A stretch of 64,000 nucleotides of DNA from an uncultured Gammaproteobacteria bacterium (GCA_964590345.1 CAZPVP010000002.1:9945-73944); one strand, 5' to 3'; numbered from the stretch's first letter, positions 25,543-52,268 are shown. Notes: generated by a model not told the origin, from the sequence alone. Made by a program: numbers and translations.

Positions 25543-25793
25543 AATTTTAAACTTAGTCCTTAAACCTTAAATCTTAAATCTCCTCACAACCCAAACAAAA
25601 ACCGAATAATCTTATACTTCCATAATAACCGAACAAAATCCGAATGTCAAGGGTGGTTATCCACAACATAGCAAAAACTACTTTTATTTATTGAAAAAAA
25701 ATCCGCCCATTTAAGTGCGGATCATTATCCCCTTTCGCCTACAAAATAAAGGCCTTTGGTGCGTTGAGTATTGTAGTATTGGGACATAATATT

Positions 25794-30006: not shown

Positions 30007-31050
30007 TTATTTTAATCTTTTTACCCGCCCGAAAATTCTATAACCCGAAACAGTTCCCGTATCTTTTATAAAATTCAGATGATGCCTGATAACAAATTGC
30101 AGATTATCCATGCATTTTATGGCTTGTTTTTTGTAGGCATCTAACTCATAAAGATCGTGCTTAGGATGAACCAAATTGCTTGCAGTGGTTGAGATTTCGT
30201 TTACCTTTTTTGCCGCAATTTTACTTATTGGATACTTACCTCGAAATAGAGAATAGCTACGACAAGTTTCCGCCAAATGCTCTATGCTTTTTAGTTTTTT
30301 GTTATCTTTAGCTTGCTTGTAGATATCAAATCCCCTCCCAACTTTTAGGAGAATTCGTATAAGTGCCTGCTCTGTGGCTGTACGACAAACAACAATAGAG
30401 GAATAGTAATACCCGAGGACATAAAGTTCCTGTGCATGGGAGAAAAGATCGAAATAATTACCATCGTAGACCATCACACCTCGATACCTTTGTGACACTG
30501 TTATGTGTCTTTTCCACATTGCCGGTAATTCTTTCTCAAGCCCCGTTCTCCATCCCTGCAGGAATTCACTTTTTTCTTGCCTACGCATAGTCAATGGTAG
30601 ATAACCGCCACCACGAACTTTATGCGCAGTAGTGATTTTAAATTTATTTTCAAGGTCTTTTATTTTTTTAAAATCAGCATGCCAAATCCACCAATCTTTA
30701 TTAAAACGTACTACTAAAATTGTAGCCGATTTCTTACCCAGAGTTGGATCATGCCACTTAACATTTTTAATTTCGTGCAAATCTACATTGATGGGTTTGC
30801 CAGCATTATTCGGATTAAGCTTCCTGTTTTTAAACTCAAGCATTACCTGTACCGCGTTGTCGAGAAAAATACGATGACTTCCGTCGGATAAAATTTCAAT
30901 TCCGGCGACACTAAAATCTTTCAGACCCAGTCGTTTTAATTCAGGCTCAATATATTCTTTTATGGCTTTATTGACTGCCTGGCCAAAGCTTTGATTCTTT
31001 TTTACGTTTTCGTCTAGAATAAAGATTGCCATATTTTTATTTCCCCTCAA
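30007..31050 (-). CDS. hypothetical protein, compositionally distinct (higher GC)
   Basis: 347 aa. Its start overlaps the Type IIG stop by 14 bp. No recognisable motif. Confidence 0.45.
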   Translation of the reverse strand: MRGNKNMAIFILDENVKKNQSFGQAVNKAIKEYIEPELKRLGLKDFSVAGIEILSDGSHRIFLDNAVQVMLEFKNRKLNPNNAGKPINVDLHEIKNVKWHDPTLGKKSATILVVRFNKDWWIWHADFKKIKDLENKFKITTAHKVRGGGYLPLTMRRQEKSEFLQGWRTGLEKELPAMWKRHITVSQRYRGVMVYDGNYFDLFSHAQELYVLGYYYSSIVVCRTATEQALIRILLKVGRGFDIYKQAKDNKKLKSIEHLAETCRSYSLFRGKYPISKIAAKKVNEISTTASNLVHPKHDLYELDAYKKQAIKCMDNLQFVIRHHLNFIKDTGTVSGYRIFGRVKRLK

Positions 31051-34000
31051 CCACCTTAATCTCCTCAGGCGTCAAATTATACAACTTATAAACCTCCTGA
31101 TCAATTTCATAATCCACTGCCTCAATCTTTGTCTTGTTTTTCTCACGGGATTCAGAGGTTTTATTTAATTTAAGCATTTCATCAACAAGTTTGATTATAT
31201 TTTTACTTATCTTTTCATCAGGATCCTTGATAATTGGTAATTCCTTAAGGTATTCTATTGTTATTTGTGTTGTCAATTTCATACCTAGATTATAGGTGTA
31301 TTCATAATAAAAATTCATTAATTCTGAATTAAGAATCGCTAAAATTAGTTTTGGATTATAATCTTTTATACCAAAAATTGAATATACTGTGTTAAAAGCC
31401 AAAACATCTTTATCTTGTGTGACAAATGTACCCCCGGGTCTAGTCGCTATCCTTTTAATAAATATTCTATCTTTATTAAATGCCTCTCTTTTATAATCAA
31501 CACCTTTTAGAGACTCCTGAATATAATAAAAATCATTAATATAATATTTTTTCAATTCTTTACCCGAAATACATTTTATTTTATATTTATCTGTTTCTAT
31601 ATCAGAACTAATACATATACCTTTTTTATTTTTAATTAATCTCTTGCAATTCTTGCAATAATTACTAGCTTTTAGATTATAGTACTTCTCGCTCAATTCA
31701 TTATATACTCCACAACTATCACATTTTATCAAATTTGTTTTTTGACCTAATTCTATACCTCGTTTAATATCTGCTATTTCTTTAAGTTTTACACTAACCT
31801 TGTTAATTGTATTTAATAAATCTTGTTTCTCTTTGGTAATATCAAAAGAAAAAGCTTGAACTGGATTTTTTGAAAAAATATTCTGATTAATTGCGTGACT
31901 GGATACTAAATTACCATCAAAAATCTTTTCAATTATTGTCAGTGCTTTGGATTTAGATTTTGAGATTATGGGGCAGATACAATCAGATGCTACCCCAGGA
32001 AATTTACCGAAATCAATAAATTTAAATAATTGCCAATCATCTAAAATTTTACTTCTTATTATTTTATAAGAAGTATTTTTTATAAAAACTTTTGGAATTA
32101 ATATCCCCATTAATCCATTTGGATTTGTAATATTCACTGATTCTAAAACAAACGGTGCGAAAAGGTTTAAATTTTTAGTATCGATAATATAAGCATTGTT
32201 AATATAATCGGTAATTTCAATAGGCATTTTAGAACTCCATGGTGGATTACCGATCACCGCATCAAATCCGCCGTCCTTAAAAATCTCGCAAAAAGCCACT
32301 GAATAATTAAAAGGCTTTATTTTTTCCAAGTTTTTAAAATATTGTTTCAGGCCATCGTTTAACTTGCCATTAATCAATGTTTCAAATTTTTTAATTTCAA
32401 CCAGTAAATCTTTTTTCTCATCATTGGCTTCAGCTTGATAAAATTTTTCTTTCAGTTCGGTTAATTTAGCAATTTCTGTTTTATAATCATCAAACAAATT
32501 AAGATTCTGTTCTTTTTCTTTAAGCTTTTCTCCGCCAATTAAAGAATTACCGCAACGGATATTTAAATTTAAATTAGGCAAAAGATGCTTACCTTTTAAT
32601 TCTGCAGGGTTAACGCCTTCCAAAGCTTTGATCATTAAATTAAGCTTGGTAATTTCAATCGCTTTAGGGTCAAGATCAACACCAAAAAGATTTTTTTGCA
32701 AAACTTTTTTCCTAAAATCAAAACTCAAAAGCCCGCCTTCTTTGGAAACTTCCAAATATTTATTATAAATCTCTTCAAAAGCGCGAATTAAAAAAGAACC
32801 AGAACCACATGCCGGATCCAAAACTTTTATTTTTTCTACATCTTCAACTGTTTTGCATTTTTTTAATAATTCCCCAACAGTATTTTTAACTATGTAATCA
32901 ACAATATAAGCGGGCGTATAATAAATGCCTTGGGATTTACGTTTTGATTTTTGCTTTTGCTTTAGAGTGTCTTCCCTCTTAATATTGCCTTTGGCAATTT
33001 CACCTAAATAATTCTCATAAACTTCGCCGATTATATGGACACTTAATTTGCTAAAATCAATTTTTTTAAGCTCATTAATAATCTTTATAATTATTTCATC
33101 ATTAATTTTCAATTCATCAGCATCATTAGGTTCAAAAAGTTCAGTGTTGAATTTTTCGTCCATTGCTCTAAAAATTGACTTTAATTCTTCGTATTTTAAC
33201 TGCTTGGACTGCAAGACTGAATCCAAATAATCCTGTGAAATAATATTCCTGTCGCTGCATAAATCAATAAAAATCAAACGATCAATAATTTTCTGGGACA
33301 TTAATTCTGAATCATACTTAGGATAATTTTTAATAATAAAAGCACGCAATTTGGCGCGCCAATTTTTAATTTTATTAAAAAAATCTTTTTTAATCTTATC
33401 CTGTTCAAGATCCAATTGTTCAGGATAATAAATCGGATCAGAATCAATAATGCCGTTTTTTCTAGTTAATTCTGATTTTGATAATTGGCTTAAAAAATTC
33501 AAGCCTTCATCTGACAATAAATCAATATAATATCTTTTATCAGCATTATCCCATAATAAATCATGAAACGCATATTTTCTTTCTTTATATAAACGTCCGT
33601 GCTGGACACTGTATAAACGCCACTCAATAAAATTGGTTAAAACTCCCCAATACAAACCTTCACCGTGGCAATAATTAAATAATTGCTGGGTAAACGGCTT
33701 GTTGCCATAAGAGCCGTCAAGTTTGTCTTTACTAGAAGCATCTTTAGATTCAATCACTAAAAGCTTAGAGCCGGTATCGGATTTTAAAATAATATCAGGA
33801 TTTTTACCGGTTTTAACATCCTGTGCAGTATCCAAAACCCAATTAGAACTATCCCAGCCTAATATTTTAAGCAATTCAATAGTAAAACTGGTTTGAATGT
33901 CTTGTTCGCGTTTTGACCAGCCGTCCTGCGTCTTAAATTTATCAACCAATGCCTGAATCTGCTTTTTTAATTTCGCCTGTTCCAATTCAAGATTTGGCGT

Positions 34001-34057
34001 GTTTAATATTATTTTCTTTTTATCCATAAAGATAGTTGTAATAACCACTATTGACAA
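31037..34057 (-). CDS. Type IIG restriction-modification enzyme (MmeI/Eco57I-like: PD-ExK nuclease plus gamma-class N6-adenine MTase plus TRD)
   Basis: PD...ExK nuclease motif at the N-terminus (NPDIILKSDTGSKLLVIESKD). MTase motif I VLDPACGSGSFL and motif IV VIGNPPWSS. A Zn-ribbon CDSCG...CKNC lies in the C-terminal target-recognition region. 1006 aa. Confidence 0.85.
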   Translation of the reverse strand: MSIVVITTIFMDKKKIILNTPNLELEQAKLKKQIQALVDKFKTQDGWSKREQDIQTSFTIELLKILGWDSSNWVLDTAQDVKTGKNPDIILKSDTGSKLLVIESKDASSKDKLDGSYGNKPFTQQLFNYCHGEGLYWGVLTNFIEWRLYSVQHGRLYKERKYAFHDLLWDNADKRYYIDLLSDEGLNFLSQLSKSELTRKNGIIDSDPIYYPEQLDLEQDKIKKDFFNKIKNWRAKLRAFIIKNYPKYDSELMSQKIIDRLIFIDLCSDRNIISQDYLDSVLQSKQLKYEELKSIFRAMDEKFNTELFEPNDADELKINDEIIIKIINELKKIDFSKLSVHIIGEVYENYLGEIAKGNIKREDTLKQKQKSKRKSQGIYYTPAYIVDYIVKNTVGELLKKCKTVEDVEKIKVLDPACGSGSFLIRAFEEIYNKYLEVSKEGGLLSFDFRKKVLQKNLFGVDLDPKAIEITKLNLMIKALEGVNPAELKGKHLLPNLNLNIRCGNSLIGGEKLKEKEQNLNLFDDYKTEIAKLTELKEKFYQAEANDEKKDLLVEIKKFETLINGKLNDGLKQYFKNLEKIKPFNYSVAFCEIFKDGGFDAVIGNPPWSSKMPIEITDYINNAYIIDTKNLNLFAPFVLESVNITNPNGLMGILIPKVFIKNTSYKIIRSKILDDWQLFKFIDFGKFPGVASDCICPIISKSKSKALTIIEKIFDGNLVSSHAINQNIFSKNPVQAFSFDITKEKQDLLNTINKVSVKLKEIADIKRGIELGQKTNLIKCDSCGVYNELSEKYYNLKASNYCKNCKRLIKNKKGICISSDIETDKYKIKCISGKELKKYYINDFYYIQESLKGVDYKREAFNKDRIFIKRIATRPGGTFVTQDKDVLAFNTVYSIFGIKDYNPKLILAILNSELMNFYYEYTYNLGMKLTTQITIEYLKELPIIKDPDEKISKNIIKLVDEMLKLNKTSESREKNKTKIEAVDYEIDQEVYKLYNLTPEEIKVVEGK

Positions 34058-34144: not shown

Positions 34145-34760
34145 CTATTTAAAGAGAAAATTTTCAGAGATTATTTTCTCTTTTATTATATTGTAATAAT
34201 CATAATCATTTATCTCGTATTTCCTAAATATTGCCCAAGAAATAAAATCTACAGCTTGAAGACTTTTTTCATTATATGCTTTACTAATTCTAATATTAAC
34301 TAAATCTTGTTTCCAGTTCTTTACGCCACCATTTAAATAATTAAGAAAATTTTTATTTAAAAACTTATTAGTTTCTCGCTGATGAAAACAAATATCAATA
34401 TTATTCCATTCTTCAAGAACCTTTGTTTTATGCAATCTATCCAATAAAATATTAGTAACATAATTATATAAAACTTGTTTTTGATCTCTCAGTCTGGTGT
34501 GTACTTTTGTTTTATTTAAAATTACCGATAGTATCTGAATTCAATCCTTGCAAAACTCTTTTTCTGGTAATTTCTTTTTCATGATAGGCATGTAAAATAG
34601 AAACTTTACAATATTTTTTTCTAAGTCCTTTATGCACCTTTTTTAACACACTTTTCCATTTTTCTATGCTTTAAAGTCAAAACAATGGTTACAATAAACC
34701 ATTTACTTGATTTTTTACTAAAACCTAAATCACCGCTTTCATCAAAAAATGTTTTTAACA
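34145..34760 (-). pseudogene. DUF3800-family gene disrupted by at least two frameshifts
   Basis: The N-terminal piece MFMLKTFFDESGDLGFS carries the DUF3800 DESG signature and stops after about 50 codons. The sequence continues in two other frames into the 99-aa ORF 34145-34444. An intact paralog lies at 43256-44029. Confidence 0.6.
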
Positions 34761-34886
34761 TAAACATATATTAAAATTACTATTATTTTACCTTTATTAT
34801 CAGCCAAAAGTCAATTAAACTGCGGCAAGCAAAAAAGCCGGCAAAAAACCGACTTATTTGCTCCCCTCTGTTTTATTAAAATACGA

Positions 34887-38292: not shown

Positions 38293-39024
38293 TTATTTAT
38301 CAATAAGCCGCAACAATGGTTCCTCCCAGCCAAAACAAGTTCTTATGCCAGTTAGCTTTTTAAAAGCTTTAAGGCAGTTTTTATCCAGTTTGGCAAATTG
38401 CTCAAGGACATAAACAACATCTTCCATAAACCCGCCTACTGTGCCGTTGGAATCATCAACGCCGCCGGTGCAAAGTTTTTTATCTAATCGTAACAGCAAA
38501 TCAACCAATAACTTGGCGGTTTGTTGGCTGACCGGCAAATCTGAAACAATGGCTGATAAACGGTTGCAACCTTCTGAAAGCGAATTTTGGTAAGCGAACC
38601 AAATTCTGGAAGGACCGTTATACGGCTTTATAAATTTCATGGCAGACGTAATCGTTTCTTTAACTTTCTTCAATTCTTCCGCGCTTAATTCGCCCAAAAC
38701 TCTGCTGCATTTGGGGCTGTCAATTAATTCCTTATCTTCTTTTTTAAGAAGTTTGCCTCTTAAAATAGCGTAAATCGCCAAAGCTACCATGTGCTTGCAT
38801 AAAGTATCATTTTGGCCAAGATAGCAGTCGCAACTGCCTTTGTCATAATATTTATGCGAAACATATACATGGTAGGGCTGTCCGCCAAGCACAATAGCCG
38901 AGAAGCCAAAAGGATCTTCCTTAAATTGAGTCACTTTGCCTGCTTCATACAAACCAACGGCTCTTTCAAATGTGGGCCGGTCAGTGGCGAATTTTATTTT
39001 ATCCAAATCAAAAGCTGGTTTCAT
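38293..39024 (-). CDS. SWIM zinc-finger protein
   Basis: CDCYLGQNDTLCKHMVA matches the CxC...CxH SWIM motif. Higher GC than its surroundings. Confidence 0.5.
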   Translation of the reverse strand: MKPAFDLDKIKFATDRPTFERAVGLYEAGKVTQFKEDPFGFSAIVLGGQPYHVYVSHKYYDKGSCDCYLGQNDTLCKHMVALAIYAILRGKLLKKEDKELIDSPKCSRVLGELSAEELKKVKETITSAMKFIKPYNGPSRIWFAYQNSLSEGCNRLSAIVSDLPVSQQTAKLLVDLLLRLDKKLCTGGVDDSNGTVGGFMEDVVYVLEQFAKLDKNCLKAFKKLTGIRTCFGWEEPLLRLIDK

Positions 39025-39045
39025 TTATTTTAAAATTATTTAAAT

Positions 39046-40374
39046 TTATCTTTTCTCAATATCCTCTTCAACTTTTCTCTTTGCTTCTTCTAATAGTTCT
39101 TTGGCTTCCCAACGTAATTTAAATGATTCCCCTACCATTTTAGCGATTTTTTGTTGAGTTTTGAGAGGTAAAATTGGAATCAAAGTATTTTCAACCTGAT
39201 CCGGCCGCCAGTGATTAATAATTGACCCGCCTGCATCTCGATCAATTTGCATCTGGCAAATCAAAGAATTTAAAACCAAAGTTAAATATTGAGGATTTAA
39301 ATTTTTATCTTTAACCTTTAATCGCAAAATTCCGCCGGAAATAATGCCTTCCTTATCTTCATTCAAATAAATTGCAATGCCAGGTGTAGCATCTTTGCTT
39401 AATAAAATTTCGCCTTTTTGCGGCTGATATTTATCTTTTAATTCGCCGTATAATTTATCACTTAAAAATTGCTGATTATTATCATTAATACCAAATTTTG
39501 ACATATTGGAAACACGAATAAAAGGCTTGCCTTCTTCCTGATAAACATCGCTCCCGGACTCAATCCCTTTTAGAGATTCAACTAAATTACCCAACTTTTC
39601 TTTTTTAACTTTAATTTTACTTAAAATTTTCTCAAACTTAGGCTGGAAATATTCAGCATCAATCCGCCCTGCTTGTTGGCAGTCTTTTAAAGTAGTGGCA
39701 TAAGCCAAATCATCTTCAAGCTTTAAATCTTTAATACTCAATTCTTCAAGCAATAAAGCTTCGGCTTGAGAGTAAAAGAATTTGGATTTTGCTATTTTCT
39801 CAAAAACTTCTTTTACTATTTTTTTGATGTTTTGTTCATTTTTAACATAAAAAGGCAAATTCATTATATCTTCTTCCGTAACTGCCGGATACATACTAGC
39901 TGATGTCAATCTATCTAAAAGTGTTATTACATGATTTGTTTTTAAATAAGCAAATAAATACTCTGAAGAAACTTTTTGTGGCCATATATCACAAAATCCA
40001 CTTGAAGCGACAAATCCATCATCCTCTTTTTGTATTAAAGAAACAGCATTTCTATTAGGTCTAACAGTTGAAACTAACACATCGCCACTCTTAACAACTT
40101 TTTGCGCTCTATCTGGGGCGTCTTCTCCCATTATTTGTTTAGCATCAAAAGTCCCGTCATTTAAATTAATTTCAGAAATTTCAATATAATTAAAAATTTC
40201 TCCCTTTTTGGGTTTGAATCTTCTAGTAACATTTTTAGTATAATTATTTAATTTCTTGTCGGTTAATTTATTTAATTTTTTAATCAAATCTAAATACTCC
40301 GGCTGATAATATTCAGCATCTAGTCTTAAAGCACCTTCAAGATAATTTTTTTTAATTATTGAATAAGTTGACAT
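39046..40374 (-). CDS. hsdS: restriction-modification specificity (S) subunit (HsdS-like / Type IIB B-subunit-like)
   Basis: 442 aa with two target-recognition domains and conserved central and terminal repeats (LDAEYYQPEY... IDAEYFQPKF). Confidence 0.85.
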   Translation of the reverse strand: MSTYSIIKKNYLEGALRLDAEYYQPEYLDLIKKLNKLTDKKLNNYTKNVTRRFKPKKGEIFNYIEISEINLNDGTFDAKQIMGEDAPDRAQKVVKSGDVLVSTVRPNRNAVSLIQKEDDGFVASSGFCDIWPQKVSSEYLFAYLKTNHVITLLDRLTSASMYPAVTEEDIMNLPFYVKNEQNIKKIVKEVFEKIAKSKFFYSQAEALLLEELSIKDLKLEDDLAYATTLKDCQQAGRIDAEYFQPKFEKILSKIKVKKEKLGNLVESLKGIESGSDVYQEEGKPFIRVSNMSKFGINDNNQQFLSDKLYGELKDKYQPQKGEILLSKDATPGIAIYLNEDKEGIISGGILRLKVKDKNLNPQYLTLVLNSLICQMQIDRDAGGSIINHWRPDQVENTLIPILPLKTQQKIAKMVGESFKLRWEAKELLEEAKRKVEEDIEKR

Positions 40375-40463
40375 AATTTATTATTTAGTCCTCTTGTGGT
40401 GAGCTTGTCGAACCATCAAGTTGAGATTTTTTGATTATTGAGTAGGTCATTTATTTACTATAA

Positions 40464-40973
40464 TTATGGATATATTTTATAAATATTTTTATTATATACG
40501 AGATAAATTCCTAAAAATCCAGTTCCTTTAAAAAATTTTTTTCTTAAATCCTTTAAATCTTTTATTTCTTTACTAGATAATTTTCCAACTATCCACCAAC
40601 CATCTAAAAGTAAAATTAAGTCTCTTTTTAATTCAATTGAATATTTTTCTGATTTTTGTTTAATAGGTTCAATGATCCCTTTCTCAATCCGAGGATCTGG
40701 TTCTGTTCTATTATAAACCCTTAAAACTTCCCCTTTTGTTGCGAATTTTTCTCGCGCATCATAATCTGCAACGGTAATTTGCATCTTTAAAGTGTGTTCC
40801 GGATTAGATTTTTTATGAGCTAAAGCATCGATACCTTCATCTATTGATGGGTGATAAGGTTCACAGTAATCTTCGTTATGATTTTTATTAATATGTTCAA
40901 TAAAAATATTCGCAATTTTCAATTCATCATCTATATTTCCCAGTTGGGGTTTTTTGATTATTGAGTAGGTCAT
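40464..40973 (-). CDS. hypothetical protein whose first 8 codons duplicate the hsdS start region
   Basis: 169 aa. The sequence ATGACCTACTCAATAATCAAAAAA occurs again, with about 33 bp of upstream flank, at 40424-40450. Confidence 0.4.
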   Translation of the reverse strand: MTYSIIKKPQLGNIDDELKIANIFIEHINKNHNEDYCEPYHPSIDEGIDALAHKKSNPEHTLKMQITVADYDAREKFATKGEVLRVYNRTEPDPRIEKGIIEPIKQKSEKYSIELKRDLILLLDGWWIVGKLSSKEIKDLKDLRKKFFKGTGFLGIYLVYNKNIYKIYP

Positions 40974-41782
40974 AATTGTTTAGCATTATCTTTTGATTGA
41001 TCTTTTATCTTCGTTAATTTTTTATGTTGTTCCTGAAAATCATCACTTTCAATAATTTCTTGTAAAAGCGCTGTTGAATGAACTAAGGCTATCCCTGTAT
41101 TTTCTGTAAAAACTGATCTTATCTCACCAGTTTGTACACTAATTGCCTCATCTTTGTAAGGTACATATGCGCCTATAATTCCTGATAATTTTATTTCAAC
41201 TGGACCTCCTATTTGAACAGAATTATCTTTTATTTTAATTGGTGTTGGTAATAAAAAAACAGGACTTCCGCTATTGCCAGGAAAAGCGAACCCATCCATA
41301 AAAAATGTTTTATCATAATTAATTCTAGAAACTACTCCCTTTCGAATAATCGGATTAATAGCGGCATCTGTTTTTAATTCATTAATTCCTGGCTGATAAG
41401 ACAGGAAAAATAAATCGACTAATTCTTGAATATCAGAAATTTTTCTAATGAATAGATCATTGGGGATAAATTTAGATTTATCACTAGGAGCTAAAGGAAA
41501 TGGTAATAAGGCAATGTCCACTTTATTATCTCCATGTTTTTTCCATGACCATCCTTGCCTTAATATTTCAGTTATTGCTTTATAATTTATGCCAAAATTA
41601 TTAGAATTTAAAAAAATATACATTTTTTCATAATTTTTTTCTACTACATGTTTAGCTGTAGCTAAATAAAAGACATCGTCTACTTGTATTAAGAATCCAG
41701 TTCCAGAAAAAACAGGCTCACTATTATTCATGTATCCTAAAAAAATAGTACTTTCTTTAATTTGAGATATTAATTGTTTCAT
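40970..41782 (-). CDS. trypsin-like (S1/Trypsin_2) serine peptidase
   Basis: Catalytic-triad candidates: H in LATAKHVV, D in VDIALL, S in FPGNSGSPVF (GDSGGP-like). Confidence 0.65.
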   Translation of the reverse strand: MKQLISQIKESTIFLGYMNNSEPVFSGTGFLIQVDDVFYLATAKHVVEKNYEKMYIFLNSNNFGINYKAITEILRQGWSWKKHGDNKVDIALLPFPLAPSDKSKFIPNDLFIRKISDIQELVDLFFLSYQPGINELKTDAAINPIIRKGVVSRINYDKTFFMDGFAFPGNSGSPVFLLPTPIKIKDNSVQIGGPVEIKLSGIIGAYVPYKDEAISVQTGEIRSVFTENTGIALVHSTALLQEIIESDDFQEQHKKLTKIKDQSKDNAKQL

Positions 41783-41795
41783 AATATGTAATTTA

Positions 41796-42350
41796 TTAAT
41801 TAAACTTCTTTTTTAAGTCTAAAATTAAATTTTCACAAGCAAAATCTATCTGTCTAAATTCGGCAATATAGCCTTCTTTATAATTTTTAGAAGTACTAAT
41901 TTCATCAAGTAAAGTATCTAATCCTTTTAAATTATCATTTCCTTTTGATATTTCTTTACATTTCTCAATCGCCTTTTTAGTTAAAATTATAAAATTATCT
42001 TTATGATTATAATATTGAGATATATGCCCAATCCTATTATGTCGAATTAGTAAAAAATCTTTTGAATATTCATTTAATTTATCTATTTCTGTTTTTTTCA
42101 AACAATCAAATTCATATAAAGACCATGTTCCGTTCCTTGAATCAAAAAATGTAGATAAAATCAAACAAATAGTCCTGGTTAAGCTATCCAATACCATTTG
42201 AAAAAAATGATTATAATTATTATTGTTAATATTTACATTTACTGCAATTTTATCATAAATAACCAATATAGAATTTAATCTACTTAATTCTTTATATAAA
42301 TACCCCCAAATTTCATATTCAGTATTATTTATTTTCTTGCCTTTTAGCAT
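41796..42350 (-). CDS. hypothetical protein with RHNRIGH (Rx4-6H, HEPN-like) motif
   Basis: 184 aa. It contains a single Rx5H motif. This is a weak assignment. Confidence 0.3.
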   Translation of the reverse strand: MLKGKKINNTEYEIWGYLYKELSRLNSILVIYDKIAVNVNINNNNYNHFFQMVLDSLTRTICLILSTFFDSRNGTWSLYEFDCLKKTEIDKLNEYSKDFLLIRHNRIGHISQYYNHKDNFIILTKKAIEKCKEISKGNDNLKGLDTLLDEISTSKNYKEGYIAEFRQIDFACENLILDLKKKFN

Positions 42351-42479
42351 AGAATATGATTAATTTACTTAATTTTGATTATCCACAGATATATTGACAA
42401 AATTTGACAATATATGAAAAATTGGTATAATGACAATGTAGTGCAAGCTACCCTCATCTATAGGATAATAGATATGTGT

Positions 42480-43136
42480 TTATACCTCCGCCTTAACGGG
42501 CGGAGTGTTTTGATTCTCAAATTTTAAAAATTGCGCTAAAGTTTCAGCCGGAATAAACTTATCTGCAACTGTTTCAAGTTCAGTACTCATTCTATTTCGG
42601 GTACTAACCACTATTATTTTTTTCTTTTTAGTCTTTAAATATGCAAGTAGTCCCCCAAAATCACTATCTCCTGAAAACAGCATTACAGTATCATATTTAT
42701 GAATTTTAACTAGCATATCTTGAGTTATTTCTACATCAAAATTGCATTTAGGAAATTTGCCTAAAAATTTTCCATCTTCATCATAATGAGGCACCATTTT
42801 AATTTCCTTGGTCCTTTTGGTAAAACCTGCTTTTTCTGCTTTTTCAACTCTATAAAGAGATTTTCCATGTTTTACATTTAATTCGTGATCTTTGGATAAA
42901 TTAGGATATTTTGCATAATGGCCATAATAGAAAAATTTTTTTGAGGGTTTAACCCATTCGCACAAGTTAGCTAGCTTCTCAATATCTATTTCCCAACAAA
43001 GTTTGTATTTATTTTCCTCCGGCCAAAATTCTTTTGCCCAAGGCCTAACATTTCCAAAATCTACGAAAACATAAATATTTTCAAATTCACCGGGTTTGAA
43101 AAAATAATAATTGCATTTAAAATCGTTTATTTCCAT
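42480..43136 (-). CDS. NYN/LabA-like PIN-fold ribonuclease domain protein
   Basis: VFVDFGNV ... MLFSGDSDFGGLLAYLK ... KIIVVS pattern of the NYN domain. Confidence 0.65.
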   Translation of the reverse strand: MEINDFKCNYYFFKPGEFENIYVFVDFGNVRPWAKEFWPEENKYKLCWEIDIEKLANLCEWVKPSKKFFYYGHYAKYPNLSKDHELNVKHGKSLYRVEKAEKAGFTKRTKEIKMVPHYDEDGKFLGKFPKCNFDVEITQDMLVKIHKYDTVMLFSGDSDFGGLLAYLKTKKKKIIVVSTRNRMSTELETVADKFIPAETLAQFLKFENQNTPPVKAEV

Positions 43137-43240
43137 GCAAATAAAATTTGTGATTACTGATTAAATTTACTTAATTTTGCTTATCCACACTGGATATTGA
43201 CAAAACATGTGAATTTGCTATAATAATTACAGAATATTAG

Positions 43241-43282
43241 AAAAAGGCGTCGGCTCTATTGGCCGATGGCCTTTTTCATTTT
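43241..43282 (-). terminator. terminator hairpin at the 3' end of the DUF3800 gene
   Basis: On the minus strand, AAAAAGGCCATCGGC-loop-GCCGACGCCTTTTT followed by CTAATATTCT. Confidence 0.45.
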
Positions 43283-44029
43283 AGCTAAAAAACCATCCGT
43301 CTTATGATGGTGAATATTAAAAGCGAAATTTCTAAAATCCTTAGTTAAAATGTTTACTCCCAAATTTTCTTTGATTTTTTTGACAAATTCCTGCTTTACA
43401 GATGATGGAGCAGAAATTATGCCATCTTTCAATAGTAATTCGTAATTAATTGCACCAGTTATAAGATCGGTTAATTGCAATAAATCATTTGTTCGTGAAT
43501 CAAGACGACAAACACCGGCGATTGCCAAACGATCAAACTTCTTATTTAAATTATTTTTAATATTGACTTCAAATTTACTCCTTTTGGGTGTAATTAAATT
43601 ATCGGCTAAAACAATTAAAACTTCGTTTTTTCTTAAATTTCCTTCCAAAAGATGCTGGGCAACTCTTTCATAAGCTAAAAAAGGATCACTATGAAATTCA
43701 TTTCTGAAATATTTGCTCCTTTTATCTATTGAATATGAGGTATAAAAAATACTTCTGGTACTAAATAAAGCTTCCAGAGCCAACAAATAAACATTTAATT
43801 TAGCTTTATTTAAATTATTAAATTTTAATTCCCACCAAAAATGATTGCATTCTCTAATATAACGCATTTTTTGCTGTAAATAATAAGGCTGGGAACATTT
43901 AATCATGCCTACTGTGAAATATGGCTGGGTTTCAATAGATAATGCTCCTGATTCATCTAAAAAGCAAAATGGGGTCCAGATATTTTTATAATCTCCTAAT
44001 GTTAAATTGTGATTATCATTATTTTCCAT
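43256..44029 (-). CDS. DUF3800 family protein (intact copy)
   Basis: N-terminal FCFLDESG signature. 257 aa. Confidence 0.65.
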   Translation of the reverse strand: MENNDNHNLTLGDYKNIWTPFCFLDESGALSIETQPYFTVGMIKCSQPYYLQQKMRYIRECNHFWWELKFNNLNKAKLNVYLLALEALFSTRSIFYTSYSIDKRSKYFRNEFHSDPFLAYERVAQHLLEGNLRKNEVLIVLADNLITPKRSKFEVNIKNNLNKKFDRLAIAGVCRLDSRTNDLLQLTDLITGAINYELLLKDGIISAPSSVKQEFVKKIKENLGVNILTKDFRNFAFNIHHHKTDGFLAKMKKAIGQ

Positions 44030-44036
44030 ATTAAAA

Positions 44037-45980
44037 TTAAAGAAAATTTAAATTATCCTTTTTGGCAAATTTTAAAAACTCATCAGCGATTTCATCTAAA
44101 TCATGATCAATTATTTTTTTACCTTTTAAATTAACCATTTTATTGCCTTCTTCATCTTTTTTATAAACATACTCACCGGAATTATCCTTACCTGATTTTT
44201 GGGATGTTGCCATGAAAATATTATAATCTTTTTTCGGTTTTTCATTTTCTAACCATTTTTGCAAAAACAAAACAGAAGTCTTAGTACCTGTATGAGGTTT
44301 AAATGTATTAACCTGCAAGCCAACTACTGCTAATATTCTAGCTTTATCCATTAAAAATTCCCTGACTTGCTGCATATTAGTATTATTAAAAACGCCTTGC
44401 GGCAAAACAATGGCTAAACGGCCACCTGGTTTAATAATATTTAATGACCGTTCAATAAATAAAATATGGCGTTCCATTTTATTTTTTAATTTGCCTTTAT
44501 CATTTTTCGCCAATTCATATTTATTTAATAAAGATTTTTCAATTATCTCACCGGCAAAAGGCGGATTGGACAATAAAATATCAAAATTAAAATATTTAAA
44601 ATTATCTTCATTATCCTTGTCTTTGGTATAATCATTGAATTTATAAAGCCTTTGCTGTAATTCTGCCCTGGCTCTTAATTTTTCACTTTCATTACCCATC
44701 CATTCTTGGGGATTTAAAGAATTTAATTTAAAAATATGAGAGCGACCATCGCCAGCTATTAGCATTAAAGCACGGGAAATTTTGACTGATTTTTCATCAA
44801 AATCAATGCCATATAAATAACGCTGAGCATATTCTCTCATTAATTCCTTATCCATGCTTAAAAATTCTTTTTTAACATGATTCATCGTATGGATTAAAAA
44901 TCCACCAGATCCACAAGCCGGATCAATCACATATTCTGTGGTTTGCGGATTTAACATTTTAACTGCCATATCAATAACATGACGCGGTGTAAAATATTGT
45001 CCCTTTTTCCCCTTAGCAATATCCGGTAATAAATATTCAAAAGCAGAGTCAATTACATCAAGATTGGCATCAAGTAATTTTATTTTTTCAAATTCACCAA
45101 CACAAACCGACAAGTGTCCCGGATTTAAATCAATTTTTTCATATTCATTAAAAATACCAGGCCATTCTTTTTTCGCACCATCAAAAAGCTGGCTAATATG
45201 ATCATAAGTTAATTGTGGATCTTTATATTGCCTAAATAATAATTCTTTATCTTTACGCTTTTTGGCCTCTTTCTCATCATATAATTTAGCGTAAATTAAT
45301 TTAAAAATCTCATTAAAACTATCAGCACCTGATCCAGCTAAAACCAATTCTTCTAATACGCGAATAATACTAACTAAATCAAAGTCAACCTCTAAATCAC
45401 TAATCGTTAATTTTTCATCCAAAACATCTTCAATATCCTGGTCAACTCTGGGAATATCACGCAAAGTGCTCTCAAATTGATCCGGATATTTACGATATAA
45501 AATAACTTTCTCATCGCCATTAGACCAAACGCCGATTGGCGCACCTTTAGAATTAACATAAGTTTTTAATTGTTCTAAACCTTTTTTCTCATCTGGCTTT
45601 TTGAGTTCAAAAATAATTAGGGCTGTTTCTTTATCCTTATGGAAAACTATAATATCAGCCGCTTTGACATGCACTTCCCCGCCAAAATGAATATTTTGTT
45701 CAATACCGATCCGGTCTAAAGGATAACCATATATTTTGATCAATTTATAAATCCATAATTGCCGAATGATTTCTTCCGGCTTAGATATTTTTTTTTCTTC
45801 GTTCAAAATTAAAATATCCTGATTGCGCACAGGATCTTTAACATAATATTTGCCGTCTTTGGCAACGATATCTAAAACTTCAGCAATTTTTATTCCTTTA
45901 AATTCCTTAAGGCCATATTCCAATTCAGGATCTTTAAAAATTTTAGTAATTACTTGATGCGCTAATTCTTTTTTAAGCAT
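44037..45980 (-). CDS. fused PD-ExK nuclease (HsdR_N-like) plus N6-adenine DNA methyltransferase; BcgI-A-like Type IIB/IIG RM subunit
   Basis: N-terminal AADIIVF...IIFELKKPD (D-x-ExK). MTase motif I VIDPACGSGGFL and motif IV LLSNPPFAG. At 647 aa its size matches the BcgI A subunit. The cognate S subunit lies 3.7 kb downstream at 39046-40374. Confidence 0.75.
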   Translation of the reverse strand: MLKKELAHQVITKIFKDPELEYGLKEFKGIKIAEVLDIVAKDGKYYVKDPVRNQDILILNEEKKISKPEEIIRQLWIYKLIKIYGYPLDRIGIEQNIHFGGEVHVKAADIIVFHKDKETALIIFELKKPDEKKGLEQLKTYVNSKGAPIGVWSNGDEKVILYRKYPDQFESTLRDIPRVDQDIEDVLDEKLTISDLEVDFDLVSIIRVLEELVLAGSGADSFNEIFKLIYAKLYDEKEAKKRKDKELLFRQYKDPQLTYDHISQLFDGAKKEWPGIFNEYEKIDLNPGHLSVCVGEFEKIKLLDANLDVIDSAFEYLLPDIAKGKKGQYFTPRHVIDMAVKMLNPQTTEYVIDPACGSGGFLIHTMNHVKKEFLSMDKELMREYAQRYLYGIDFDEKSVKISRALMLIAGDGRSHIFKLNSLNPQEWMGNESEKLRARAELQQRLYKFNDYTKDKDNEDNFKYFNFDILLSNPPFAGEIIEKSLLNKYELAKNDKGKLKNKMERHILFIERSLNIIKPGGRLAIVLPQGVFNNTNMQQVREFLMDKARILAVVGLQVNTFKPHTGTKTSVLFLQKWLENEKPKKDYNIFMATSQKSGKDNSGEYVYKKDEEGNKMVNLKGKKIIDHDLDEIADEFLKFAKKDNLNFL

Positions 45981-45981
45981 A

Positions 45982-46599
45982 TTATCTTGATAAATTTTTA
46001 ATTATTTTTCCTTTAATGTAGGTTTCCTCGCAAACAGGGATGATATCATATTTCGGATTTTCTGGCTGAAAAAATGTTCTGTTGCCTTTAAATTTTAAAC
46101 GTTTAACAGTAAAACCAATATCCATGACGTGAGCAAAAACAATATCATTATCTTTAAATTCATTGCCTTTTTGAACAAGCAAAAGGTCTCCGTCATGAAT
46201 ACCAGCTCCGATCATTGAATCGCCAAAAGCTTTAATAATAGTCAATTTGTCTGAAAATTCATGAACTTCAGAAGACAATTCTATCCAATGATCTTTTTGC
46301 TCAAAAACTTCTACTAAAGCTCCGCAAGGGGCTTCTCCCTCCATTTTTATTACTGGTTTAACATTTAGTGCGTCAAATCCTTTTTTTAAAATTTGAATTG
46401 ACCTAGCCACACCTTCATTTCTTTTGATAAATTTGCCATTTTCTAAAATTTCTAATAAATCTAAAACTGCTTGATTAGATTTTACATCTAACTCTCTTTT
46501 CATATCTTCAAAAGAAGGTCCAAAACCTGAAGATTTCAGCCAATCATAAATAATCTGAAGCAATTGCTTTTGCCTTTTTGTTATTGCATGGGGTTTCAT
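45982..46599 (-). CDS. second LexA-like repressor (wHTH plus S24 peptidase)
   Basis: TKRQKQLLQIIYDW...GFGPSFEDM at the N-terminus and AFGDSMIGAGIHDGDLLLV in the C-terminal region. Its stop lies 1 bp before the ATG of the RM nuclease-MTase gene. Confidence 0.75.
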   Translation of the reverse strand: MKPHAITKRQKQLLQIIYDWLKSSGFGPSFEDMKRELDVKSNQAVLDLLEILENGKFIKRNEGVARSIQILKKGFDALNVKPVIKMEGEAPCGALVEVFEQKDHWIELSSEVHEFSDKLTIIKAFGDSMIGAGIHDGDLLLVQKGNEFKDNDIVFAHVMDIGFTVKRLKFKGNRTFFQPENPKYDIIPVCEETYIKGKIIKNLSR

Positions 46600-46613
46600 A
46601 TGTCTATATTTTA

Positions 46614-46631
46614 ACTGACTATTTAGTCAGT
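46614..46631. promoter_or_regulatory. palindromic operator candidate ACTGACTA-TT-TAGTCAGT in the 5' UTR of the LexA-like gene
   Basis: Perfect 8-bp arms, 15-32 nt upstream of the start codon. Adjacent to TGTGGATAA (minus-strand sense). Confidence 0.45.
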
Positions 46632-46706
46632 AGTCAAATTATTTATCCACAAAAAAACATCCCCTATAGAAATGTTTTTTTACATAAAAAATATTTTATA
46701 AATTCC

Positions 46707-49933: not shown

Positions 49934-50599
49934 TTAGCCATTTTGTAAATTTTCATCCTTAAAGCTTCCGACCAAGTTGTTTGGATTAACAACATAATCA
50001 AAAACTTGAGGATTATTTTCTTTGAGATGACTTACCATCATCTTAAATGAAACGACGCAAGGCAAAACCCAGCTGCCAAAATAAAATCGCGGAATGCCGA
50101 AAGGTTCTATCCAGAAGCAGTGTTTATGGGCTTCCAGAAAAAACCTAAAATCAATCGTAAAGTACATATAGCCAAGACTGTTACGCAGACATACATGGTA
50201 AACGATTTTACCAATATCCACAGTAAAGTTTGACTGTTTCTCTCTGAATTTTTTAAGAGCCGCTACTTGGGAAATTTCCACTTCATGATTTTGAACTTCC
50301 TGGCATTGATGGCTCTCAAAAAATTCCGTTTCTGGCCGCTTTTCACCGAATTTACTGAAAAGCGGCAGTGGCAAAGGATATGAGCGAATCAAGCGCATGC
50401 CAGCCATCACTTCCTGCGAAGCTTTATCAAATATTAAAAAAAGCATTGACTGGCTATCATACTCATCCTCGACCCTGCCTTGCGGATATTTTACCGACTC
50501 AAACCACTTCAGTTCCTGACAGTAAACCTGGTAAATCAGCTCCTGATAAGCTTTAAGCTCTTCAGGATTTCCCACTGCCTTAATTATCCGGTCAAACAT
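49934..50599 (-). CDS. GNAT-fold N-acyl synthase of the LuxI/FeeM (autoinducer-synthase-like) family, tentative
   Basis: Pattern ...GMRLIRSYPLPLPLFSKF...EISQVAALKKFR resembles the core of N-acyl amino acid/AHL synthases. 221 aa. Confidence 0.4.
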   Translation of the reverse strand: MFDRIIKAVGNPEELKAYQELIYQVYCQELKWFESVKYPQGRVEDEYDSQSMLFLIFDKASQEVMAGMRLIRSYPLPLPLFSKFGEKRPETEFFESHQCQEVQNHEVEISQVAALKKFREKQSNFTVDIGKIVYHVCLRNSLGYMYFTIDFRFFLEAHKHCFWIEPFGIPRFYFGSWVLPCVVSFKMMVSHLKENNPQVFDYVVNPNNLVGSFKDENLQNG

Positions 50600-50616
50600 T
50601 TTTCTACTCCTTTAGT

Positions 50617-51567
50617 CTAAGAGCTTTTTTCCTGCTGAAAAAAACAAAGTTTTTCCCCAAAGCAACCTTGCCGAATCTCTTGGAAAAGCGGATGGTTTTG
50701 CCAAAGATCCTGCAAATTCTGCCAAGGCGCTTTTTCCTTTGGCTCAAAAATATTACCTGCCTTTTTCTGGTAAAAAAAATTGCAGGCAAAAACCGTACCA
50801 TCAGAGCCAATATAAGCAATTTTCCGGCCACAGTCGCAGGGCGCATAGCGGACGTCTTTCAGGTCGTAAATTTCTGGATACTCCAGATGCGAAAAGCACC
50901 AAAGTTCCAGATAAGGCTTATCTGGCCCAATCATTTGAACAACTTCCAGAATCTGCTCCACTAGCTCTAAACGCAATGGAACCAATTCAGAAGTTGCCCT
51001 TCCCCCTAAAATCAATGCCTGAATTTCCAGGCCAGCCACGCCGATCCGGCTGACAAAATCGTAAATTTCAGGCAGTTCCCGAACATTGAGCCTGATCGGC
51101 ACAACTTCGGGAATTACGGTTAAAGCCGTAGCATTGGCCGCATAAATCAAATTGGCAATTACTTGATTCAAAAGCTCGGGTCTGCTTTGCCGGATTTGCC
51201 CGTAAACTTCTGGCTTGAGCGTATCAAAAGTCACGTGCAAGACGTCCAAACCGACCGCTACCAGCGCATCCAGCACCTTTGGATCAGCCAATTCCAGATT
51301 AGTATTAATCTGAACTTGAGCGCCAGAATCTTTAGCATGCTTAATGCAGTCAATCAGAGTTTCCCAGCAAACAAGAGGATCACCGCCTGTAAAAGAAACT
51401 TTTTGCGGCAAAAAAGCTTCAATTATAGACTTAATCGCTTCGCCAGAAAGTTCCTTGGTTTTCCAACCGTCATTATTGATGCAGTAAACGCAGCGGACAT
51501 TACATGCGGTTGTCAGTTGGAATTCAATCTTTTGCAATGTTTGCATTTTCAACCTCCTTTTTGGCAA
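50617..51567 (-). CDS. radical SAM protein with SPASM-type C-terminal Cys cluster
   Basis: CNVRCVYC CX3CX2C motif. C-terminal auxiliary cluster region (YAPCDCGRKIAYIGSDGTVFACNFF). Confidence 0.75.
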   Translation of the reverse strand: MPKRRLKMQTLQKIEFQLTTACNVRCVYCINNDGWKTKELSGEAIKSIIEAFLPQKVSFTGGDPLVCWETLIDCIKHAKDSGAQVQINTNLELADPKVLDALVAVGLDVLHVTFDTLKPEVYGQIRQSRPELLNQVIANLIYAANATALTVIPEVVPIRLNVRELPEIYDFVSRIGVAGLEIQALILGGRATSELVPLRLELVEQILEVVQMIGPDKPYLELWCFSHLEYPEIYDLKDVRYAPCDCGRKIAYIGSDGTVFACNFFYQKKAGNIFEPKEKAPWQNLQDLWQNHPLFQEIRQGCFGEKLCFFQQEKSS

Positions 51568-52268
51568 CAGCCAAAATGTCTACGCCAGCATAAACTGGCC
51601 GAATCTTAATCTGCTGAAAATTAGCTTGAGCCAATAATTCCGCCATTTCTTTTGCTGTATAGAAAAAATCACGACTTGCAGTGCTTTGCATTGAAAGCAA
51701 CAGATTGTAAACAGCCAACAGCGCAAACCAGGGCAGATAAAAACATGTTTTGGCCAGACAGAACCAGTCTCGGCGCCGAAAAATCTGCTTAAAATGCTCC
51801 GGTAAAACAGGCGCCGGATTATTGGTTCGCGGCGTGGCCACCGCCAAAATACCTCCCGGCTTCAAGACGCGGAAAAATTCAGCCAAGGCAAGCTTTGGCT
51901 GGACTAAATTGTAAAGGGCATGGCAACAGCAAACCGCATCAAAACACCCCTCACTAAAAGGCAATTTTTGATTCAAATCAACCTGCTGCCATTTAAAATT
52001 TGAATCCAAATTCTTGGCTCGGGCCTTTTTTAGCATAGTTTCTGAAATATCAATACCAGTGAAAAAAATTCGCCCTTTGTTTTTTGAATCAAAATAGTGG
52101 CAAAGATTGCCTGTGCCGCAGCCAGCATCAAGCACATTTTGGCCAGGTTGCAAATTAAGCGCCAATAAAATTTCTGACATCAGATCCTGAAAAGGCAACA
52201 GAAAAAGCTTGAAGTCAATCAGGTAAGCATAAGGCGCCCAGATGATTTTTTTCAAAAACGTAGCCATA
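51524..52268 (-). CDS. class I SAM-dependent methyltransferase
   Basis: VLDAGCGTGNL motif I. The start is set at MATFLKK, which is preceded by AAAGGAGG. The longer ORF-track N-terminus is read-through. Confidence 0.7.

Follow-up and report, generated by a model that had tools for sequence, protein, structure and literature searches.

The subject of this study is a run of eight consecutive open reading frames (ORFs) on the minus strand (39046-46640) of a 64,000-nucleotide stretch of DNA from an uncultured Gammaproteobacteria bacterium (GCA_964590345.1 CAZPVP010000002.1:9945-73944); we refer to the whole stretch as the window. In transcription order, the ORFs encode a LexA-like protein, a 647-amino-acid methyltransferase-like subunit (M), a DUF3800 protein, an NYN protein, a 184-aa protein, a protease, a 169-aa protein, and an HsdS specificity subunit (S). 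We consider it probable, on comparative sequence evidence, that the interval between M and S is a recombination hotspot that collects small, mutually unrelated genes of defense or abortive infection within a three-gene platform widespread in Patescibacteria. The core of the platform would comprise a LexA-like autorepressor, a nuclease-methyltransferase fusion subunit, and a specificity subunit with two target recognition domains (TRDs); most likely, it encodes a helicase-independent restriction-modification (RM) enzyme of the (RM)2S type. An initial annotation of this DNA had placed its ORFs correctly: all lie on the minus strand at the coordinates given, and Pfam and PADLOC confirmed the named domains. 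We ascribe the operon to a tiny bacterium of the candidate phyla (Patescibacteria). It did not mention the LexA-like gene, which ends 1 nt before M.

The architecture of M bears on the nature of this enzyme. The protein matched two Pfam domains, HSDR_N_2 (residues 68-177, 5.7e-19) and N6_Mtase (residues 308-626, 1.8e-38), and the motifs DPACGSGGFL and NPPF are legible in its translation. As for a TRD, Pfam returned no match in M to Methylase_S or TaqI_C. In an alignment of 20 homologues, the PD-ExK residues D109, E125, and K127 were invariant; because this invariance spans divergent homologues, the site appears to have been selected as a catalytic one. The family is large (7381 database clusters at E<1e-30) and uniform near the query: the top 120 homologues are 65-76% identical to M, all are about 645 aa long, and all have the same two domains. 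Nearly all of the named homologues are labeled as Patescibacteria/CPR (candidate phyla radiation) lineages. A lookup of the exact M sequence met with no record. The closest solved structure is RM.BsaXI, whether the search began from the single sequence (2e-28) or from the family profile (9.8e-39), and the profile aligns with that enzyme across its nuclease motif (adiiv...iievk / vdvlv...fievk) as well as its methyltransferase domain. These data support the identification of M as a fusion of a PD-ExK nuclease with a gamma-class N6-adenine methyltransferase, BcgI/BsaXI-like in architecture and homology, and they uphold the initial annotation's description of the 647-aa protein as a BcgI-like A subunit.

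Does the two-TRD HsdS gene, which lies 3.7 kb away from M, encode its partner, as the same annotation had proposed? To address this question, we relied on a scan in which a single genome represented each GTDB species; it yielded 80 related loci (L001-L080). The S gene lies downstream of M and co-oriented with it in 64 of the 80. When all ORFs of these loci were clustered, three families proved to be conserved (M in 78 loci, the LexA-like protein in 69, and S in 65) and no others; in particular, this clustering revealed no helicase or hsdR gene conserved within 10 kb in the 80 loci. Because S accompanies M in this way and no hsdR is conserved, its assignment as the partner of M is supported. 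The amino terminus of HsdS, M(I)TYSIIQKSQLEGAxRLDAEYYQPEYL, is nearly invariant across the family. The best structural matches of the S protein are Type I S subunits, and S.BsaXI was matched at 5.6e-8. The window itself contains no hsdR gene, as had been claimed: three ORFs reach 700 aa, namely DnaE, a Type IIG enzyme, and one of 719 aa that is a putative histidine kinase to judge from its HisKA-like motif, SHELQTPL.

An alternative is that M and S are the methylase component of a classical Type I system, orphaned by the loss of HsdR or served by an HsdR encoded elsewhere, and that HSDR_N_2 is not a working nuclease. PADLOC, JGI, and NCBI labels do name the M family a Type I M protein, the S protein fits Type I S structures best, and MADS, a homologous system, needs additional proteins for defense. 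This explanation is unlikely, however, given the invariant nuclease residues in divergent M homologues, the alignment of the nuclease motif with that of RM.BsaXI, and the want of a helicase or HsdR both in the window and, as a conserved neighbor within 10 kb, in the 80 loci. We therefore favor a helicase-independent enzyme, in which M and S together would possess restriction activity.

How closely does this putative enzyme resemble characterized systems? BsaXI and BcgI are Type IIB enzymes, the former an (RM)2S heterotrimer (PMC11997821) and the latter A2B (PMC3592470). Like the present locus, both combine an N-terminal PD-ExK nuclease and a gamma N6-adenine methyltransferase in one polypeptide that lacks a TRD, and both have a separate, two-TRD, HsdS-like subunit. 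Neither has a helicase subunit; here, none was seen in the window or as a conserved gene within 10 kb in the 80 loci. RM.BsaXI is much longer than M (916 aa vs. 647 aa), and neither the linkage to a LexA-like repressor nor a cargo slot has been described for BcgI or BsaXI. The likeness is one of genes; double-strand cleavage at set distances to either side of a bipartite site is a feature of the Type IIB class and would be putative for M and S. Classical Type I systems, in contrast, need HsdR, whereas here the nuclease domain is fused to M and HsdR is missing from the window and from the flanks of the 80 loci.

A further comparison is with MADS, the methylation-associated defense system of Pseudomonas aeruginosa (bioRxiv 10.1101/2023.03.30.534895). 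M is homologous to MAD2 over nearly its full length (NCBIfam, 1.1e-96) and S to MAD5 (1.3e-40), but the scores fall well short of the equivalog cut-offs (324.7 vs. 720 bits for MAD2; 139.6 vs. 400 for MAD5). MAD6, MAD7, and MAD8 are mandatory in the model of the MADS authors (bioRxiv 10.1101/2023.03.30.534895), yet no equivalent of these three is conserved near the 80 loci. Among the window genes scanned, PADLOC found similarity only to mad2 and mad5; the LexA-like protein had no PADLOC match of any kind and hence none to mad1. The gene order is shared: the mad1-mad8 numbering implies a regulator in first place and mad3/mad4 between the methylase and specificity genes. Further, three slot cargo proteins in the related loci match mad3 (7e-16, PADLOC). 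MADS may have descended from, or may be a fixed elaboration of, the same M-cargo-S arrangement.

The interval between M and S is where the related loci differ. In the 64 loci that have both genes, its length is between -16 and 2818 nt (median, 868 nt); it exceeds 400 nt in 54 of them, and M and S are adjacent in only five. The window's interval, at 3662 nt, is the largest seen. These 64 slots contain 85 co-directional cargo proteins that fall into 56 sequence clusters. Counted by Pfam domain, the most frequent are DUF3800 (8), NYN (7), Trypsin_2 (3), ATPases of the AAA_15/AAA_21/SMC_N kind (3), the RnlA toxin domain (3), and DUF4145 (2); Clp protease, Schlafen AlbA_2, RiboL-PSP HEPN, PBECR3, OLD-TOPRIM, and others also occur. 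The PADLOC matches comprise PDC-M04A, NYN, HEC-09, AriA/GajA/PtuA-like ATPases, AbiLi, LmuA, and mad3. To judge from these domains, the repertoire is the profile of a defense hotspot. The five window genes conform to this picture: all stand between M and S, and they include matches to PDC and HEC candidates. The defense-type domains that the initial annotation had ascribed to them are indeed present, and three of the proteins belong to PADLOC candidate families. We propose that the cargo proteins would serve as independent second-line effectors (RNases and a protease) that gain from co-inheritance and co-expression with the RM core.

Might these genes instead be passengers without a defensive role, or decaying remnants (fragments of mobile elements, housekeeping RNases or proteases), that have accumulated at a permissive site? 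The 169-aa protein lacks a recognizable domain, the family of the 184-aa protein is tiny, the hsdS stubs described below point to sloppy recombination, and four loci have gaps of 480-782 nt that hold no ORF of at least 60 aa on the coding strand. Decay is difficult to reconcile, however, with five intact cargo ORFs in the window whose catalytic residues are conserved. Neither does the slot resemble a repository of mobile elements: Pfam detected no transposase or integrase domain among 80 slot cargo proteins, and the domains that were found are typical of defense islands and of PADLOC's embedded candidates. We thus judge this account very unlikely and retain a defensive function as the best candidate role for the cargo.

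The initial annotation interpreted the five genes as one insertion, a single abortive-infection or RNA-targeting module that had entered a BcgI-like operon as a unit. Their physical arrangement is compatible with that idea: they are co-directional and tightly packed, with a gap of only 13 nt between the HEPN (184-aa) and protease genes and a 4-nt overlap between the protease and 169-aa genes. We used iterated profile searches with the slot proteins to ascertain how the families are distributed. The DUF3800 family occurs in L008, L020, L042, and L061, in each case directly after M; NYN is the commonest slot cargo, present in eight other loci; the protease family was found only in the slot of L002, and the HEPN family, in this survey, only in L084. 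Across 65 other loci, NYN and HEPN were the sole pair of the five families to recur; they do so in L084, with two unrelated genes lying between them. The expected synteny was therefore seen for this pair and for no other; co-occurrence of the five outside this genome is essentially nil, which counts against a single module.

The closest relative, L002, is instructive in this regard. It shares about 74-77% DNA identity with the window in lexA-M, the protease, and S (77% for hsdS), and its order is M-protease-278aa-S. Compared with it, the window has a DUF3800-NYN-HEPN block added after M, ahead of the protease, and the gene that precedes S is a different one. In L002, the protease gene immediately follows M, and the HEPN, NYN, DUF3800, and 169-aa genes are all missing. 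Homologues of the 184-aa protein likewise keep other company. Two share the slot in L084 (LexA-M-NYN-267aa-183aa-HEPN-S) and L085 (HEPN-111aa-S), a third, in L082, lies outside any RM locus, and none of the three adjoins a protease. Within the window, a terminator and two promoter copies divide the five-gene block, and an hsdS stub sets the origin of the 169-aa gene apart from that of the protease. We conclude that a single co-functional system is quite unlikely: the interval is filled in 54 of 64 loci by 56 clusters whose families assort independently, and the block's own promoters, terminator, and hsdS stubs mark separate cassettes.

The traces that delimit these putative cassettes deserve closer description. 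A 24-nt sequence, ATGACCTACTCAATAATCAAAAAA, is present in two exact copies, at 40973 and 40450, where none would be expected by chance; the true hsdS start is a diverged third copy. With the copy at 40450 begins a relic ORF of 21 codons, located in the spacer before hsdS. The other begins the 169-aa gene, whose start overlaps the protease stop (ATGA). The initial annotation had noted that this ORF reuses the hsdS start, and the exact repeat makes the case stronger than was claimed. The sole homologue of the 169-aa protein (P0123, 53% identical) has its start where the window protein has residue 14, and codon 14 of the window gene is ATA rather than ATG; for these reasons, we believe that its first 13 codons were borrowed from hsdS. 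Relic hsdS 5' stubs are also located within the slots of L020, L036, and L043.

Repeated promoter-like sequences are the second kind of trace. The spacers before the NYN and HEPN genes share a 26-nt element (96% identical) that is preceded by TTGTCAAT. The arrangement TGTCAAT..TGTGGATAA..AAAAT recurs in slot spacers of L008, L029, L036, and L061, and in L004 it is situated directly upstream of hsdS. Because it adjoins hsdS there and recurs in slot spacers, it is probably the native type of hsdS promoter in this family. We also considered antisense RNAs, as the plus strand has two perfect TTGACA-16-TATAAT matches, at 42404-42431 and 43197-43224; we regard this as the less likely reading, since both sites belong to the repeated promoter element and its minus-strand reading fits the genes. 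Rfam identified no RNA family in the region.

Together, the internal promoters, the terminator, and the two hsdS 5' stubs suggest that at least four cassettes were acquired separately. The first would be DUF3800, whose start lies 7 nt after M; it is probably co-transcribed with lexA-M, being read through from M and then terminated. The second would be the NYN RNase under its own promoter. The third would comprise the AbiU2-like HEPN protein and the trypsin-like protease under the second copy of the NYN-type promoter, and the fourth the 169-aa gene, expressed from the captured hsdS start. For hsdS itself, the most likely promoter would be the one that precedes the HEPN gene. Under this scheme, cassettes would have been added by recombination in or beside the conserved 5' end of hsdS, and the stubs would be what remains of such events.

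A separate observation concerns hsdS itself. The hsdS gene of L001 (14041-14803) matches the window (39023-39774, 77% identity) only in its second half, that is, TRD2 and the C-terminus, whereas that of L002 matches over its full length. A half-gene match of this sort is the usual signature of TRD shuffling. It shows that recombination is active in this region.

The individual cargo proteins were scrutinized for features of active effectors. The DUF3800 protein keeps its DE and QxxD motifs; this family has been described as the RNase H2-like effector of type VII retrons, with which the protein shares these motifs, although no retron reverse transcriptase or noncoding RNA is found here. The NYN protein retains the acidic motifs DFGN and GDSDF. 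In the protease, H45, D89, and S171 are conserved, in agreement with the catalytic triad candidates named earlier. Its L002 counterpart is 79% identical. A metagenome scan for further protease relatives gave 553 pattern matches, none of which was confirmed, leaving L002 as the only known relative. For the 169-aa protein, no fold could be assigned from the AlphaFold2 model, which was unusable (two sequences only; predicted local distance difference test score of 35).

The 184-aa protein was classified through its family. Its own score against AbiU2 (22.6 bits) lies below the Pfam gathering threshold of 26.8, and a word-indexed homology search retrieved nothing but the protein itself. An exhaustive HMMER search yielded 28 homologues in 1.84 billion representatives. 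Ten of 21 family members match Pfam HEPN_AbiU2; H109 is invariant in the family and R103 nearly so, which constitutes the Rx5H motif. The protein thus fits the AbiU2-like HEPN class, which is characterized by a helical bundle with a conserved Rx4-6H motif, and the initial annotation's HEPN-like label was sound. The family shares its Rx4-6H motif with AbiU2 of lactococcal AbiU; no AbiU1 partner is present here.

That defense genes can be embedded in RM loci is already known. Precedents include PrrC in EcoprrI, TgvAB in the Type I system of V. cholerae VPI-2, and the HEC/PDC candidates (Payne et al. 2024); what defines a PDC family in Payne et al. 2024 is its nesting within Type I RM, BREX, or DISARM loci. 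The present case shares with these the nesting of unrelated defense genes between genes for subunits of a methylation system, and three of its proteins belong to families from that work: DUF3800 matches PDC-M04A and the protease PDC-S45 (both by "guilt by embedding"), and NYN matches HEC-09. It differs in having an IIB-like host core that appears to lack a helicase, in a slot that is filled in about 85% of the sampled loci, in the LexA-like gene with which the operon begins (69 of 80 loci), and in the leftover hsdS 5' ends that record cassette addition. PrrC senses inhibition of its RM enzyme; a functional link of that kind is hypothetical for the cargo here.

How might such an operon be controlled? 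The LexA-like protein has the LexA DNA-binding and S24 peptidase domains (Pfam), and motifs for the Ser (GDSM) and Lys (VKRL) of the catalytic dyad are legible in its translation. It narrowly passes the LexA equivalog model TIGR00498 (111.2 bits vs. a cut-off of 110.95). In 69 of the 80 loci, its gene is the one immediately preceding M; it is missing from the four non-CPR loci, which are labeled Nitrospirae or Omnitrophota. The lexA promoter consists of a TGTGGATAA box (46643-46651), a -35 element (TTGACT, 46632-46637), and a -10 element (TAAAAT, 46608-46613), and a perfect 18-bp palindrome, ACTGACTAAATAGTCAGT (46614-46631), occupies the space between the latter two. Most related loci have the core GACyAwwTrGTC or the variant CCCGACTAAATAGTCGGG at the same place in front of lexA, flanked by TTGAC and TATAAT. 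Matches to the GACyAwwTrGTC core occur almost exclusively at the lexA promoter, as seen over 1.2 Mb of locus DNA. From these features we infer an autoregulated lexA-M operon: the LexA-like protein would occlude the lexA-RM promoter, which would be derepressed upon self-cleavage of the repressor.

Some further observations pertain to the repressor and its DNA. At the position of the Ala-Gly cleavage site, the LexA-like protein reads ...EAPCGALVE..., i.e., Cys-Gly (by eye); LexA is cleaved at Ala-Gly and UmuD at Cys-Gly. The only other near-match to the operator in the window, CTGATTAAATAGTCGG (63086-63101, minus strand, two mismatches), is inside an ATP-sulfurylase/APS-kinase gene and is probably due to chance. 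The DnaA-box-like 9-mer TGTGGATAA appears five times in the window (0.5 expected), always co-oriented with genes: at 25657, 29100, 42379, 43181, and 46643, all on the minus strand. In 39 of 69 related loci, the form TT[AT]TCCACA precedes lexA at a distance of no more than 200 nt, accounting for 39 of the 95 sites in 1.2 Mb, and boxes of the TGTGGATAA type are also contained in slot-internal promoters. The box could bind a regulator, DnaA being one possibility, or it could be a promoter element peculiar to this lineage.

Several considerations weigh against our interpretation. The absence of hsdR applies to the 64-kb window and the flanks of the related loci, and such a gene may be located elsewhere in the genome. 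The 80 loci were those that matched best among at least 576 hits, and the family as a whole may differ from this sample; moreover, their ORFs were called crudely (first start codon), such that cargo counts are approximate. The promoters and terminator are consensus matches, and the promoter scan as a whole did not exceed the shuffled expectation. HEC-09, an NYN family embedded in Hma systems, was unprotective in the one published test. The LexA-like gene could be the organism's SOS regulator, merely linked to the RM genes. Finally, restriction, methylation, LexA cleavage, and defense by the cargo are all predictions from sequence.

A broader and decidedly more tentative proposition is that the lexA-RM-slot-S arrangement is a lineage-wide platform for the acquisition of defense genes in Patescibacteria, loosely integron-like and coupled to DNA damage through LexA; we view this as possible but doubtful. 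In such a platform, the conserved hsdS 5' end and the TGTCAAT..TGTGGATAA promoter would act as a landing site, new cassettes would recombine there, capture the promoter or start codon of S, and leave hsdS stubs, and the LexA-like repressor would tie both the restriction enzyme and the captured effectors to DNA damage. In the searchable literature, we did not find a lexA-RM-slot-S locus described across Patescibacteria, with a slot that is mostly occupied and with hsdS stubs that record cassette addition; two published accounts of RM in these bacteria do not describe the architecture. Patescibacteria have tiny genomes and reportedly mostly lack CRISPR (PMC12455944), and how they are protected from phages is poorly known. 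If the proposition is correct, these bacteria, with their reduced genomes and mostly without CRISPR, would owe their innate immunity chiefly to one small locus under constant renewal. If our main interpretation is right, one conserved locus supplies both a compact restriction enzyme that works without a helicase and a slot in which small effector families are sampled by the dozen. The slots would then amount to a catalogue of candidate defense genes (56 clusters from only 64 genomes), the hsdS stubs and captured start codon would provide a natural example of cassette addition to an RM operon, and the coupling of innate immunity to a LexA-type DNA-damage switch would become open to testing. Taken by itself, the window offers a more modest result: among the loci seen with this architecture it bears the heaviest load, and the principle of embedding defense genes in RM loci has been published.

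Features of the lexA-RM-slot-S locus, in transcription order, with the basis for each assignment.
Feature	Position	Strand	Basis
Promoter and operator of the lexA-RM operon	46608-46651	minus	Promoter scan and palindrome search; consensus matches
LexA-like repressor gene	45982-46599	minus	Pfam LexA DNA-binding and S24 domains; TIGR00498
M (RM fusion subunit), 647 aa	44037-45980	minus	Pfam HSDR_N_2 and N6_Mtase; PADLOC MTase_I PDLC03034, 1.8e-182
Cargo 1: DUF3800 protein	43256-44029	minus	Pfam, 5.6e-12; PADLOC PDC-M04A, 7.6e-26
Terminator-like hairpin and T run at the end of the DUF3800 gene	43250-43266	minus	Consensus match
Promoter-like element upstream of NYN, TTGTCAAT...TGTGGATAA.CAAAAT	43164-43203	minus	Repeat and consensus match
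Cargo 2: NYN/LabA-like predicted RNase	42480-43136	minus	Pfam, 6.6e-16; PADLOC NYN and HEC-09
Second promoter-like copy, 5' of the HEPN-protease-169aa-hsdS block	42362-42400	minus	Repeat match
Cargo 3: AbiU2-like HEPN protein, 184 aa	41796-42350	minus	Rx5H (R103, H109)
Cargo 4: trypsin-like serine protease	40970-41782	minus	Pfam Trypsin_2, 5.4e-8; PADLOC PDC-S45, 3.1e-18
Cargo 5: 169-aa protein, fold unassigned	40464-40973	minus	First 13 codons (40935-40973) hsdS-derived
Relic hsdS 5' end, 21-codon ORF (MTYSIIKKSQLDGSTSSPQED, then stop)	40385-40450	minus	Repeat of the hsdS start
HsdS specificity subunit, 442 aa, two TRDs	39046-40374	minus	PADLOC models at ~53-209 and 255-418

The locus is flanked by genes for GatB, ThrRS, RtcB, and GMP synthase; because these are housekeeping genes, the context is chromosomal. 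Just downstream of S, with its start 21 nt after hsdS, is a gene for a 243-aa SWIM zinc-finger protein (38293-39024, minus strand), the amino terminus of which matches the first 90 residues of the PADLOC candidate PDC-S62 (7.6e-14). It may be a further defense-related gene. As a component of the system it was rejected, since it is conserved in none of the 80 related loci.

Elsewhere in the window, a frameshifted DUF3800-like pseudogene (34145-34767, minus strand) is situated directly upstream of the Type IIG enzyme, a protein of 1006 aa (31037-34057, minus strand) that combines an Eco57I methyltransferase with TaqI_C. The pseudogene was recognized by eye from an N-terminal FFDESGDLGF in one frame and a C-terminal LQAVDF in another; it had no significant match in Pfam or BLASTP searches. 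With the DUF3800 assignment made by eye, the two form a second pairing of DUF3800 with an RM gene in the window. Finally, the segment at 50001-52000 has a GC content of 0.42-0.45, compared with about 0.30 elsewhere, and the translations of its ORFs read like a radical-SAM protein and a methyltransferase; this segment may have been acquired horizontally.

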